A DNA stretch of 64,000 bases from Eledone cirrhosa (Eukaryota): the NCBI GenBank assembly GCA_964016885.1, contig OZ024743.1, positions 291,400,001 to 291,464,000 on the forward strand, read 5' to 3'. A program made the translations under genes and the position numbers. Within the stretch, counting starts at the first letter, position 1; each line of letters begins with the position of its first letter. The notes beneath the pieces were generated by a model. That model saw only the letters and a program-made list of their open reading frames with translations, was not told where the DNA came from and did not search any database. Below, piece after piece: positions 7,091 through 60,569 of this stretch.

Positions 7091-7137
7091 GTCAGACAGT
7101 ACACTGTTTCAAGTTATGTTAATACTTCATCAGTGAC
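7091..7137 (-). ncRNA. Type-I hammerhead ribozyme candidate
   Basis: Minus: GTCA-CTGATGA-AGTATTAACATAACTT-GAAA-CAGTGTACTG-TC-TGAC. Stem I GTCA/TGAC, stem III CAG/CTG, GUC cleavage triplet. Confidence 0.7.
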
Positions 7138-8484
7138 CCTCACTCGAAACGTATTCGCATGAAATAGATAATAGTCTACGTAGAAGCTTGATGATCACTT
7201 GCTTCTGATGCTCATTTACATATAGCAAAGCATACAACATCGGCTGGAACTTGTCATTTGCATACATTGTAGGCTTTCTGCCTGGCTATATTTAATTGAA
7301 TATAGCATTAAGACATAAGATTTTGAGCCAAGCTCGAACAATATGCAGAAGTCAAATTCCAGCTGATGTTTTTAATAATTCACTATGAAATCGGATTGAA
7401 GTGAACTTGCAATTTAATACCAGAACTGTCAAACATCCCTTCTTGGGAGGATCAAACAGGTAGAATCCTCAGATATGATTTCTAGAGCGTGCCACCACGA
7501 GTAACCGTTTCCAATCGATCTTTCTGGATGCCCTAGCAAGATTAACACTAGTCATGAATGTTATCCAACTATCTCGTTCTACATCTGGCATTACACATAA
7601 AATATGTTCAGTGATGCTTCCCTTAGACATTATAGATACATGGCGCATATCAGGCATGTGATTTTGTATTCGAGATCGTATTCCTTCGGACATTACTCAA
7701 GATTCCAACCATATGCAAGAGTATGCTTGAACGACGAATTGAAGAAAGGGAATATGGATTTTACTCATCATACTTACTTCTTCTAATGAACGAATGCTGT
7801 ACCTGGCATATTACTGCACCTGGCATATTAAGTGAATACATTACTCCAGTAATGTTTTCACTTAATTCAGCCTCTTACCGTCAATCACGCGTGAAAACGA
7901 CCACGAAAATCTTTAAATACTCAATCTGATTCTGTGTAATTATACCTATATGCACAGAATATTACACATGCTTTCTTCGTGAGACAGGGCAACCCTCTAC
8001 AGCAAACTTATCCAGTGCATTTCGTCTAAAAATTACAGCCAACTTATCATACACGCACCTACCAACTCGGCTGCGCAGGTCAATCATGTTCATGAAAATT
8101 ATGGATAAGAGTGTTGACATATCGCAAAGTTGGCGAATCAAGCACCCACAATAAATGACATCGACTTGAACATACATATGTGGATTTCAAGATAAGAAGA
8201 TGCTGTGCATGGAGCGCGTACACCTTCCACAATGGATCAAGAAATAGGCAGTGATATTTCTTTGCGAGTTCCACGAAACGAGCATAAATCTCTTGGCATT
8301 TCACCCATTCACAACAAAGGAGGCATGTTGCAATGCCATCCCAACGACTCAATCAAAGTTTAATGTCCAAATGAATATAATAGAATTTGAACTATTGTTA
8401 CTCTAAATAGTGTCCTGCACATGTTTTCGAACTGTCAACTGTTGTGTAATTCAAAATAGGAATTTTTCGATTTCTTTCTTTTAC

Positions 8485-10000
8485 TACTTCTTCTTCGCCC
8501 ATTTATTCCTAAGAGGGTCGTAGGGACAGAGTCCTGAAACACTCCCTCCAGCAGGTCCTAACAGAAGCAACCCTCTCCAAATGATCCGGCTTAATCCTAA
8601 AGTGAGATCAACTATGCTCATGGATGTTATCAAACCGTCTTGAAGAAGCCAATTCCCAGGTCTCTTTTCAATTGGATTTGCGCATAAAAATCTGTCCAGC
8701 GATTATTTTTTGATACATTCTAACCACATGTCCATTGTATTGGAGCTGTGATCTCTCGGACAAGTAGCTGCTCTAACTGAAGTGACTCTCCCATCTCCTA
8801 ACTATGCACGCAATCAAATAACGTTACTCCAAAGACTTTCGGATAATTGATGATCATAGGTGGGGGATGGCACGAATACCGAATTCAAGTTAGCGAGTTT
8901 TGCTTTTACACATACCTCCCTTCATCTGATTACCAAATGCCGAAGAAGGCGCATTCCTGCACCAGCTCCTGCAAATGTTGCACTTAATTCAGCTTCCTGC
9001 CTTCCATCACTCGTATGCACGACCTTGAGATACTTTAAATATTCCACCTGCTTCAGTGAACCTCACTTCACATGAAGTGTGCACTGCGCAGGCTTCCATG
9101 TGAGGACGGCTGTCTCAATTTTCGCAGCACTGAATTTCATTCTAGGCATGCAACACTCGGCATTGAATATATTAATTGCAAGTCGCAGATCACCTTCTAT
9201 CCAATTATGTAATACAATGCCGTTTCCAAATTCCAGCCGATTGATTTTACACCCACCAGCCTTGCTACCACTTGAAACCCGGCTGCGCATGTCAATCCTG
9301 TTTATTAAATTAATGAAGTACGCATCCTTGGAGCAGATTGACTCTTATATTGGATGATTTTGATTTAACACCATTTATCCAAACACAAATACTCTGGCAT
9401 TCGTATAGAGACATCAAGACAGTAACAAGCTGACCATCTATCAGATAGGCCTGCACAACCTTCCAAATGAGGTCGGCAGGGATGTGGTCATATGCCTTTT
9501 GGAGATCTACAAAACACACATGATATTTTATCCAAATTCATAGAACTCCATGTGATACAAAAGTTTGTTCATACAAAGTGGAGATTGTTCAGCTCAGCAG
9601 TTTCTGCTTCAGCTGTTAAATGATGTCTGCCAAAAAGGCTTCTTGGATGGCTTGAGGATCAATTCGTTGAATATGCAATCCAACGAAAGAAGGAGACCCA
9701 CAATTCGTAGCTTGGAAATAATTCCTCCTTGCACATGTGGCACAAGCAAGCACCAAAGATCACGTAAAGTCAGTAAAGGCGTGCAAAAGTTAATACATCG
9801 GAGGACTTTGGCGTTAAGCAGGGATCCGACTTCAGTTCTGCAAATAAAGTGTTGTGAGAGACCATCCACCGACTTCATAATAAGAAGTTCTTATCCACAC
9901 ATGTTATCAGGAACACATCTGGCGTTCTCCTCTCTTCAGTGAGGAGTATTCTCATGAGATAGAGAGACTATTTTACTGATCTCCTGAACCCGATCACAAC
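8485..10000 (-). mobile_element. Degenerate RTE-clade LINE, RT and 3' part
   Basis: FVDLQKAYDHIP...LLQGCVL (9310-9519). Downstream RT/thumb remnants at 8860-9290. The 3' end resembles the copy at about 18490. Confidence 0.8.
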
Positions 10001-11265
10001 ATCATTCTGTTTTACGCTATATAAAATCATGGAGAGAATATGAATAGACTTTTTCTCATATGAGTTATTGCGAATTGTTTTCTTTTTTTAGTAGATCTTT
10101 GACGTTATTTGTAAACGTTTCGGTTATTAATTAGTGGTGTTTTGTTTTTTGTCGCTGGTTTTATGTGCTCAGATTTCCAATCTCTCTGAGTTAAACTGTG
10201 CCTTTCATTTTTTTATGGTGCTAGCAAGTTGTAAGAGTCCATGGTGGTAGACAGGCAGCATATTTGGAACGTGAGACGAGTTGCTTTATGGTATTTGTTT
10301 CAGGAATTAGATTTTTCCATTTCTCCTGCTTTGTATGAAGTAAACCCATGACTATAAAACCGTAACTCCTAAACAATGTTGTAACTATTGAAGGATAATT
10401 GTGGTTGTCTGACATTGCATTCGTCGCTAACGATCTAAAACTTCAAGACTATCATCAAGGAAATAGAATATAGTTCACACAGCAAAAAGAGTGCTTACTA
10501 TAAATTTCCCTATAGGAAACTGGGCTGCAAAGTTCATTGGCTGACTGCGAAGAAGTGAGGCTACATTTATGAAATCTTACATACATTAATTGCAACTATT
10601 CTTATTAATAACTACATTGTTTCCTTCCCGGGACTTATGTACAAAATATATACCTAATGTGTTTATTCAATCAGAGTATTTTGGTAAATCTATGACGTTT
10701 TCAGTCTATGAACATTTCAACTGAACCCCGTAAATATACCCAGAGAGATAAGCACGTTAATTATAATATACTGACCGCTAGGAGAGCATGAGATCTGTAA
10801 AAGTGAAAATAAGTAACAATTGATCTGTGGTATTCTAATGTTTCTGTTAATTTCTTTATTCTTTTAATTTTAAATGTAAAAATAATTGTTCTCTTCATTT
10901 CCAAATATAACACCCAAAACATTTAAAATCATTTTCGCTGTTAAATAAAAAGCATGCACAAAATTATTGGTGAAAATGTCACAGTTTATTGTTTCTTTTT
11001 TTTTAATTTGTTTTTTTTACGAAGCAGCATTTATGTCTGAATGCGCACAAATTTATTCCAGGAATAGCTTTTCATAATATTTATTAAATATTGATTTGTT
11101 TTACGTAAGTTAGAAATAAGATATATTTAAAATAAAGTGAGATGTAAATCTCAGATTAAAAATCAGGATTATTTTAAATAGAAGTTTTTAATCTTAAACA
11201 TATTTTTAACTTTCGATCATTTCAAACAACCGATTGCTTCCAGTTATATCATTTTCTCATTACTC

Positions 11266-11570
11266 TCTTTCGCATACAAACAGTACATACACACACACAC
11301 ACACACACACACACACACACACATATATATATATATATATATATATATATATATATCTTTCGCATACAACCAGTACATATATATATATATATATATATAT
11401 ATATATATATATATATATATATATATATATATATCTTTCGCATACAACCAGTACATATATATATATATATATATATATATATATATATATATATATATAT
11501 ATATATATATATATATATATATATATATATGTACATACACACACACACACACACACACATATATATATAT
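11266..11570. repeat. Compound microsatellite with three copies of a 22-bp spacer motif
   Basis: TCTTTCGCATACAA(A/C)CAGTACA at 11266, 11356 and 11434, separated by (CA)n/(TA)n. Confidence 0.9.
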
Positions 11571-11599
11571 GGATGCATTCGGTTTGAAAATGGTGGTTA

Positions 11600-59914: not shown

Positions 59915-60010
59915 TGCCTTTCTTCTTTACGGGGTCGATAAAATAAAGTACCAGTAATGTACTGGTTATTATGTGCTGGCCTTGTGCCAAAAGTAGAAAC
60001 AATTATTATA
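59915..60010 (+). mobile_element. Family-A SINE 3' fragment
   Basis: GCCTTTCTTCTTTACGGGGTCGATAAAATAAAGTACCAGTAATGTACTGG..GTGCCAAAAGTAGAAAC, near-identical to 32507-32596. Confidence 0.8.
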
Positions 60011-60099
60011 ATATTATAAAATTAAATCAAATTATTTAGTACGACAAGTGAAGTCATTATATTCCTTTTTTTTCAAATATATATATATATATATAAAGG

Positions 60100-60285
60100 A
60101 ACGATAGACTTTCGTCAAATCGAACCGAGGAAACAATGTTTCTGTTGGTCTTTCCAATTGCTAATACTATCCCATCTGTAGCAACTCCAGATAGAAGGAG
60201 CAACGGGAAATAAAGTGTCTTGCTCAAGGACATAACGCATCGCCCGGTCCAGGAATCGAACTTACAACCTCACGATTGCGAATCC
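60100..60285 (-). mobile_element. Family-B SINE
   Basis: Homologous to 54315-54500; AAGTGTCTTGCTCAAGGACA, GGAATCGAAC. Confidence 0.75.
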
Positions 60286-60480
60286 ATATATATATATATA
60301 GTTGTTATATAGTAAGGTGTATTATTGGTTGTGTCAAACGGTCCAATAAATGTTTGTTAGCAATATTAAGTTCTCCACGCTTTTGTATATCTCCAATTCC
60401 ATTTATGGGAACAGCTATATGTTGTAAAACGGAGAATTTGTATCAAAATAAAGATCCGAAGACATGGTATAAATTTCCAA

Positions 60481-60569
60481 TCATTTTAATCACGACACAT
60501 GTTTCAATAAGAGATAGATTGATCGTGTAGCCTTGATCGATTATCAATGACCTCGTCAGGTGAAAATGA
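60481..60569 (-). ncRNA. Type-I hammerhead ribozyme candidate, probably in the 3' terminal repeat of the 61.9-63.8 kb PLE
   Basis: Minus: TCATTTTCAC-CTGACGA-GGTCATTGAT..ATCAA..ATT-GAAA-CATGTG-TC-GTGATTAAAATGA. Confidence 0.65.

Follow-up and report, generated by a model that had tools for sequence, protein, structure and literature searches.

A 64,000-nucleotide stretch of the Eledone cirrhosa genome (contig OZ024743.1, positions 291,400,001 to 291,464,000; hereafter the window) carries two classes of hammerhead repeats, and one of its retrozyme families, which we call J, contains a hammerhead in S-G-C order whose stem II is split and for which self-cleavage is predicted. We put the probability of this reading at roughly 0.72. 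S, G and C denote the cleavage site, GAAA and CUGAUGA, and their order in J and in three further families, M, K and N, is no circular permutation of the kind that relates types I, II and III (CGS, GSC and SCG). The type I families of the window are known in kind; the split-stem-II S-G-C hammerhead, found in four retrozyme families, is a new form. An initial annotation of the window, which listed 13 type I sites, was incomplete in that it overlooked the 13 S-G-C cores of a 512-bp array.

39215..45598, minus strand: family J retrozyme array, 12 full units of about 512 bp and a 5′-truncated 13th, flanked by (TA)n runs
45421..45534, minus strand: one J ribozyme, with Pa (GUCC), hairpin Pb, the 5′ strand of IIc (UUGCA) and the interaction strand CCGACG, then blocks S, G and C

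Each unit of the array holds one S-G-C core, 10 of them with CUGAUGA and three with the change A9G. On the minus strand the blocks follow one another as AGGUA-UA-UGAUUU, GAAA-UAUCU and AAAUCA-CUGAUGA, and stems I and III pair perfectly. Written out for the ribozyme at 45421..45534, block S (AGGUA-UA-UGAUUU) is followed by block G (UGCAAU-GAAA-UAUCU), CGUCGG, block C (AAAUCA-CUGAUGA-G) and GGAC, and the cut is predicted to fall 3′ of position 45483. A complete core with 5–6 bp stems I and III in S-G-C order occurs 10 times in the window versus 0.01 times in shuffled sequence, and when GAAA and CUGAUGA were held fixed, S-G-C stems arose in 10 of 20,000 trials. We also tried the J core as a type II hammerhead with a hairpin stem I and as a type III hammerhead across a 250-nt loop; stem III is then unpaired and the relatives give no support, and both were rejected.

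These relatives are families K, M and N together with diverged J-like cores, all found in locus flanks by a descriptor that specified the S-G-C order and the two core stems alone. Four extra helices had been written for J before any relative was known; they played no part in the descriptor, and they hold in K, M and N with other letters. Candidate places in the 3.0-Gb genome number 2849 for J, 2061 for M (seed locus L090, with a core at 502–615), 855 for K (L070, core at 2462–2602) and 1227 for N (L141, core at 1050–1180 on the minus strand). We examined 25 loci each of K, M and N, and the few multi-unit loci among them give tandem periods of about 634 bp (M), 667 bp (K) and 712–745 bp (N). 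M and J are relatives (74% over part), neither K nor N has a blastn match to J, and no linked frame of a Penelope-like element (PLE) was present in the examined loci of M, K or N. One apparent link between M and a neighboring PLE (L246) proved to be a separate insertion behind (TA)n.

All four families share one layout, in the order Pa, hairpin Pb, IIc, interaction strand, S, G, C and Pa′, and the letters of its helices change from family to family. Stem I is UGAUUU/AAAUCA in J, UGGUCUU/AAGAUCA in M, CUCUCA/UGAGAG in K, CUGUUU/AAACAG in N and CUGUA/UACAG in N2. Stem III occurs as AGGUA/UAUCU, GGUA/UACC, UGUAG/CUACA or UGUGG/CCACA, and GAUG/CAUC; IIc as UUGCA/UGCAA, UCGC/GCGA, GCACGA/UCGUGC and GGCGC/GCGCC; and Pa as GUCC/GGAC, ACC/GGU and UUUCCC/GGGAAA. 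The interaction helix, whose 5′ strand sits upstream of block S and not 3′ of block C, is CCGACG/CGUCGG in J, CCAACC/GGUUGG in M, GCCGG/CCGGU in K and CUAUGG/CCGUAG in N. Once S-G-C matches in the L240 minisatellite are excluded, 49 distinct intact cores carry C3-U4-G5-A6-N7-G8-A9, G12-A13-A14-A15.1 and U16.1-H17, with the triplets AUA, AUC, GUA and GUU.

The helices covary. Shuffles of the upstream 70 nt reached the full layout in 0, 1, 4, 1, 7, 1 and 4 of 2000 cases for J, J3, M, M2, K and two N copies, respectively. Among six natural cores of the J/M group, 94% of cells are paired and seven pairs have changed on both sides, compared with 0–3 of 500 shuffles and with slid controls at 45% or less. 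One stem III pair of K is A-U in 12 of the 25 loci, G-C in 8 and something else in 5 (Fisher p 0.003). Contigs of four sequencing runs, compared with the J unit, contain the same family and provide no useful covariation.

In the fold that we propose, stems I and III would form as pseudoknots. The strand preceding GAAA would pair upstream to give IIc, which would continue into the interaction helix between stems I and II, and the strand following CUGANGA would pair still further upstream as Pa. Pa, hairpin Pb, IIc and the core would then meet in a four-way junction that takes the place of stem II.

Several observations weigh against an active ribozyme of this design. Not one of the 49 cores has more than 2 bp of direct 10.x–11.x pairing (0–2 bp), a shortage that would make an ordinary hammerhead weaker, and M, which is young and abundant, mostly has A opposite A beside the core (10.1/11.1). 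For J2, which lacks Pb, 97 of 2000 shuffles reach the layout. The script that recognizes the architecture failed on 5 of 13 copies, with no architecture in L158, L144, L145 and L217 and no intact core in L140. Nested folding recovers only some of the helices, with z of about −1.9 and, for M, −0.5. Because the copies are related, the covariation counts cannot be treated as independent, and J itself supplied the structure used for the J/M group. Among 50 GIY-YIG loci, out of over 10,000 candidates, none proved to be an autonomous PLE that has an SGC motif or is homologous to a J, M, K or N unit. Of nine frog retrozyme dimers, only one cleaved in vitro, as described in a recent preprint (bioRxiv 10.64898/2026.07.22.740005). 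Finally, a private variant is common to all overlapping units in only 8 of 29 short arrays, and 14 shared private variants stand against 135 single-unit variants, which is weak for a monomeric circle; we set shared variants aside as proof of rolling-circle copying.

Two other explanations accept the conserved blocks and read them differently. The S-G-C blocks might assemble between units of a multimer, with S and C from unit n and G from unit n+1, or between two molecules, and would then constitute an ordinary type III-like or double hammerhead. Every family is tandem, PLE-type hammerheads are thought to act as dimers (according to PMC4209133), and covariation is blind to whether pairing occurs in cis or in trans. 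However, all blocks lie within about 60 nt of one another on short linkers, no stem III is palindromic, and the UUAA/UAAU linker, which leads from stem I to the strand ahead of GAAA, resembles that of cis-acting SGC variants in three published alignment rows (PMC10085705), and we consider assembly across units or molecules unlikely. The fold might also have been kept for another job, as a binding or priming signal for a PLE protein or as a protein-assisted ribozyme, with no cleavage by the RNA alone. It is hard to see why CUGANGA, GAAA and NUH should then be retained in four families whose stems have changed, and natural hammerheads with a one-pair or mismatched stem II are on record (PMC3088659). 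Nevertheless, a different job would fit the near absence of stem II, the spread of M despite its A·A at 10.1/11.1, the genomic copies that span the cut site, and the suggestion that an anole PLE hammerhead is protein-assisted (PMC11167929). We hold this possibility to be just as doubtful as assembly in multimers, and self-cleavage by a split-stem-II hammerhead in cis is the reading that we prefer.

Genomic copies of J also record how the family inserts. Among 33 loci drawn from the best matches, a sample biased to loci with a full unit, 32 end at one unit position followed by (TA)n, their 5′ ends range from position 1 to position 464, and two carry an inverted 5′ piece. Fixed 3′ ends, (TA)n, and ragged or inverted 5′ ends are insertion marks of PLE type. 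Unit positions 341–460, where the S-G-C core lies, are the least variable (0.5–1.3% versus 1.1–5.5%). The ORF-less units (those devoid of an open reading frame, ORF) are likely copied by a Penelope enzyme in trans. In the cycle that we envisage, an array would be transcribed and its ribozymes would cut once per unit, and the monomers would re-ligate to circles or remain partly uncleaved. The PLE endonuclease would nick (TA)n, and its reverse transcriptase (RT) would begin internally, at a constant point about 120 nt 3′ of the cut, and would copy one unit or more before falling off; long arrays would later grow by local duplication. Internal initiation and the cutting of AT-rich DNA have both been described for an anole PLE RT (PMC11167929).

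One count bears on the template. When loci were retrieved with only the 116 nt 3′ of the predicted cut, 11 of 12 rows extended past the cut. These rows come from 12 of 30 loci, after the window array, two loci seen earlier and four repeats of one array were dropped, and two of the rows share an array. A cleaved linear monomer primed at the fixed genomic 3′ end position, about 120 nt 3′ of the predicted cut, would yield only 120 nt, so the template must have been continuous, either a circle or an uncleaved multimer.

Far less probable still is the view that the ORF-less units never moved as RNAs and are instead satellites, or truncated ends of PLEs, passively spread by duplication at the DNA level. 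Long arrays do show local higher-order duplication, including a 5-unit repeat in the window, and the 2026 preprint favors local expansion from a PLE end (bioRxiv 10.64898/2026.07.22.740005). Yet short arrays occur on numerous contigs, where they share a single 3′ end, differ in their 5′ ends, include inverted 5′ pieces and have (TA)n as target, and the sequence upstream of a unit is another unit and not PLE coding sequence. As an account of dispersal, the passive view is largely refuted.

Two features of J arrays deserve separate mention. A low-complexity frame of 146 codons starts at an ATG within the ribozyme and crosses the junction between units (39896–40333, minus strand, and in other J units). 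We rejected it as a protein: the frame is open in 14 of 40 copies, has no Pfam match and, as judged by eye, is closed after 15 codons in M. In addition, a mixed array (L121:460–2406) consists of ordinary J units and, in register and head to tail with them, a J2 unit that has diverged (80%); it may record template switching between related RNAs.

The remaining hammerheads of the window are of type I. Four families, A, B, E and G, reside in ORF-less units:

6881..7300, minus strand: family A, old ORF-less unit of about 400 bp, 71–79% identical to other copies, with an intact type I hammerhead at 7091–7137
12855..13135, minus strand: family B, 5′-truncated copy of a 594-bp ORF-less unit, with a U3-A8 type I hammerhead at 12924–13013
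35920..37257, plus strand: family E, 669-bp ORF-less unit with an inverted 5′ duplicate; type I hammerheads at 36204 (minus) and 36782 (plus), with palindromic stem III
53471..54302, plus strand: family G, ORF-less unit of about 530 bp with an inverted 5′ duplicate; hammerhead intact at 54168 (plus) and broken at 53638 (minus)
54661..54967, plus strand: diverged G-type copy (77%) with an intact hammerhead at 54825

A first look at the genome gave 361 candidates for A, 2603 for B, 3063 for E and 3496 for G, from which 40 per family were scored and 15 loci per family examined. The initial annotation had described such units as non-coding, and the genomic copies bear this out. Extension upstream of a unit leads into another copy of it, with periods of 669 bp (E), about 530 bp (G), about 400 bp (A) and 594 bp (B), and the units of E, G and B have no frame above 80 codons. 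Head-to-tail ORF-less units with one hammerhead each, dispersed in the genome, are common to A, B, E, G, J, M, K and N; the type I hammerhead is present in the first four and absent from the others. A, B, E and G are non-LTR (long terminal repeat) retrozymes of the kind already described (PMC7229834), for which a tie to PLEs has been reported as well (bioRxiv 10.64898/2026.07.22.740005). Families B, E and G have two or three preferred 3′ end positions per unit, and J and M essentially one. Two further ideas about E were dropped: its apparent linkage to neighboring PLEs (L193, L258) reflects separate insertions behind (TA)n, and a second CUGAUGA near its 3′ end has no consistent fold. Outside the window, a further tandem retrozyme family of about 480–510 bp shows five consecutive type I hammerheads (L248:3700–5800).

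The other four families, C, D, F and H, lie at the 3′ ends of PLEs or probably do so:

19629..25359, plus strand: PLE1 with family D; RT at 22689–24461, a CX4CxxC linker, GIY-YIG at 24537–24956 and a minimal type I hammerhead at 25161
19629–22029: inverted truncated copy of PLE1, holding the broken hammerhead 19773
45626..45878, plus strand: solo 3′ end related to PLE1, with a minimal hammerhead at 45681; it adjoins the J array across a (TA)n run
47143..49560, plus strand: PLE2 remnant with family F; endonuclease with CxCX5C at 47601–48095, and an inverted terminal copy with hammerhead 47184 (minus)
60285..63773, minus strand: PLE3 with family H; RT at 62910–63773, endonuclease remnants with CxCX5C at 61987–62258, a long 3′ region and a terminal hammerhead at 60481
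14625..15978, plus strand: family C, a microsatellite-rich 3′ end, likely of a PLE, with a type I hammerhead at 15833–15883 and an inverted piece at 14699–14736

The association with PLEs, which the initial annotation had also put forward, is confirmed for D by RT and GIY-YIG frames upstream of hammerhead 25161, for F by the endonuclease fragment at 47601–48095 between the inverted pair, and for H by genomic copies that reach 1.7 kb upstream into a GIY-YIG-like frame. Family D has the full set of PLE features (RT followed by a C-terminal GIY-YIG, a type I hammerhead in the 3′ repeat and an inverted truncated copy), whereas the membership of F and H rests on endonuclease or RT remnants, and the direct terminal copy of PLE2 (49225–49419) lacks a CUGAUGA core. 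Copies of C have a long microsatellite-rich 5′ extension, and C is likely a PLE 3′ end to judge from a relative in L254, where each of the two tandem PLE copies has a related motif 1.3 kb downstream of the ORF. Wherever a terminal hammerhead was found in 20 longer PLE loci, it is of type I. A common PLE family, PLE4 (16014–17370, minus strand; L193, L246), shows no hammerhead in its 3′ region by the descriptors used; the window copy of this region includes a tandem repeat of 123 bp, and by eye the terminus of PLE4 is loosely like the 3′ end of J. Several other PLE 3′ ends (L240, L241, L245, L247, L249, L256, L209 and L025) carry U3-A8 type I hammerheads with UUGAAAA or UUGAUAA, cores that escape any CUGANGA search.

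A census of the whole window, which has 36% GC and is rich in (TA)n, supports much of the initial list. A hammerhead-like motif is present at all 13 coordinates that it gave, eight on the minus strand, and the sites group into eight families, in keeping with its estimate of at least eight. A type I descriptor recovers 10 of the 13 (cores 7133−, 13008−, 15839+, 25168+, 36274−, 36788+, 47239−, 54173+, 54830+ and 60559−) versus a mean of 0.27 and a maximum of 3 in 200 dinucleotide shuffles, and a stricter descriptor finds 4–5 sites versus 0.02–0.07. Site 45681 has all core letters with weak stems (stem I is 4 bp), 19773 is broken by GAAC in place of GAAA, and 53638 by a C3·A8 mismatch and a C at 16.1. 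The family B core at 12924 has U3-A8 instead of C3-G8 in every copy inspected, a compensatory change recorded as an active variant (PMC3088659). The pairs 19773/25161, 36204/36782 and 53638/54168 are inverted duplicates, with one insertion per pair.

The proposed division into PLE-linked hammerheads and ORF-less units holds as well, with four families at PLE 3′ ends (three established, one likely) and four in ORF-less units. In contrast, although the sites themselves are real, the idea of a cluster peculiar to this window did not survive, given 154 distinct type I motifs in 38 similarity clusters across about 1.0 Mb of genomic loci, a set of overlapping loci chosen around hammerhead-bearing elements. 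Nor did a search against Rfam recover the sites, as no hammerhead appeared among 140 matches at E ≤ 5 and none of the 13 was reported; the miRNA matches are microsatellites, and there is no other real Rfam family in the window. The type I part is an ordinary extension of described PLE and retrozyme biology, in which PLE RT would be supplied in trans, the hammerheads would act as dimers and the RNAs would form circles.

Other repeats surround these elements. A LINE-like element (long interspersed nuclear element) occupies 1–5301 (minus strand), with a zinc-knuckle ORF1 followed by an endonuclease and RT frame (Pfam PF03372, PF00078). Elements resembling miniature inverted-repeat transposable elements, with long terminal inverted repeats, lie at 33752–34585 and 46093–46739, and one repeat like a short interspersed nuclear element has copies at 5927–6108, 32029–32595, 59915–60010 and 61472–61662, one of them inserted in the 3′ region of PLE3. 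There is also a 37-bp minisatellite of 5.4 copies with 96% matches (33474–33672), and an old repeat in three copies that are 66–70% alike (8509–8843, 18504–18915 and 37685–38077).

If the S-G-C reading is true, a high-copy, multi-family animal example would place non-circularly permuted ribozymes in a host, assign them a role in biology and suggest where they evolve, namely in tandem and circular RNAs in which blocks can be reshuffled. Ribozyme censuses of animal genomes, all of them based on type I or direct-stem-II patterns, would then overlook a class that is abundant, and inexpensive bench tests and structure work could draw on one fold solved by nature with four different sequences. We lean, with less assurance than for the prediction in the window itself, toward a stronger proposal. 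This would be a seventh natural hammerhead topology, in addition to the six block orders considered possible, with the chain broken inside stem II as well and rebuilt from upstream strands as a four-way junction. It would be active, would propel four or more retrozyme families at thousands of places in an animal genome, and would be the first ribozyme of non-circularly permuted order to have both its host and its job known.

Compared with known systems, families C, D, F and H show no essential difference from published PLE hammerheads. They share with the minimal type I hammerheads of PLE terminal repeats a short palindromic stem III and many unrelated families per genome, as well as inverted 5′-truncated copies and (TA)n targets (as described in PMC4209133). 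The CX4CxxC linker of PLE1 fits the CX2-5CxxC of Neptune/Nematis-like elements, and the CxCX5C of PLE2 and PLE3 is the linker of the Hydra clade (Craig et al. 2021, bioRxiv 10.1101/2021.04.23.441226). Metazoan non-LTR retrozymes are described as ORF-less, low-GC tandem units whose length comes to a few hundred bp (Cervera and de la Pena 2020, PMC7229834; Li, Clavereau and Pollet 2026, bioRxiv 10.64898/2026.07.22.740005). Like the units of the window, they have one hammerhead per unit, are dispersed as monomers to multimers and co-occur with PLEs; those accounts are not known to name a mollusc other than mussel. A, B, E and G fit this description directly, whereas J, M, K and N have a permuted form instead of the defining type I.

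The closest counterpart of J, M, K and N is type SGC (HRIMA-1 and a variant), which cleaves at 0.007–0.19 per min and is known from metatranscriptomes only, with no host assigned (Eckert, Friedrich, Weinberg and Weinberg 2023, PMC10085705). According to that report, RefSeq was searched and genomes of known organisms yielded none except one doubtful type-GCS candidate; the words "octopus" and "mollusc" are absent from the text of its supplement. Our own literature search, which also addressed octopus-genome ribozymes, found no SGC or permuted hammerhead in the genome of a named organism, within a coverage that took in few subscription journals and with preprint supplements that may list more retrozymes. 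A metagenome scan with the J/M pattern gave 0 matches; with a looser pattern it gave at least 117 stretches, and 80 among the matches listed were scanned, with four weak two-stem matches judged by eye to be chance.

The published type and ours share the S-G-C order, the core letters, stems I and III as pseudoknots, the few nucleotides that link stem I with the strand preceding GAAA, and a helix that connects the regions of stems I and II. They differ in stem II. The authors assumed CUGANGA and its stem II strand to be inseparable, and published SGC ribozymes have a direct stem II with G10.1-C11.1 and 2–6 bp, which J, M, K and N are without (0–2 bp). The published search pattern combines CUGAUGAG, CGAAA and a direct 2–6 bp stem II; its core letters occur in one of our 49 cores and a full direct stem II in none, so a split stem II would cause that pattern to miss J, M, K and N. 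The stem II partner strand lies 3′ of CUGAUGA in published SGC and upstream of block S in our families, in which the strand after CUGANGA pairs elsewhere, as Pa. Moreover, the published examples are metatranscriptomic, whereas J, M, K and N sit in animal chromosomal retroelements with thousands of candidate places. The simplest reading of these sequences is that J, M, K and N have the SGC fold with a break within stem II, and that Pa and Pb close this break to give a four-way junction.

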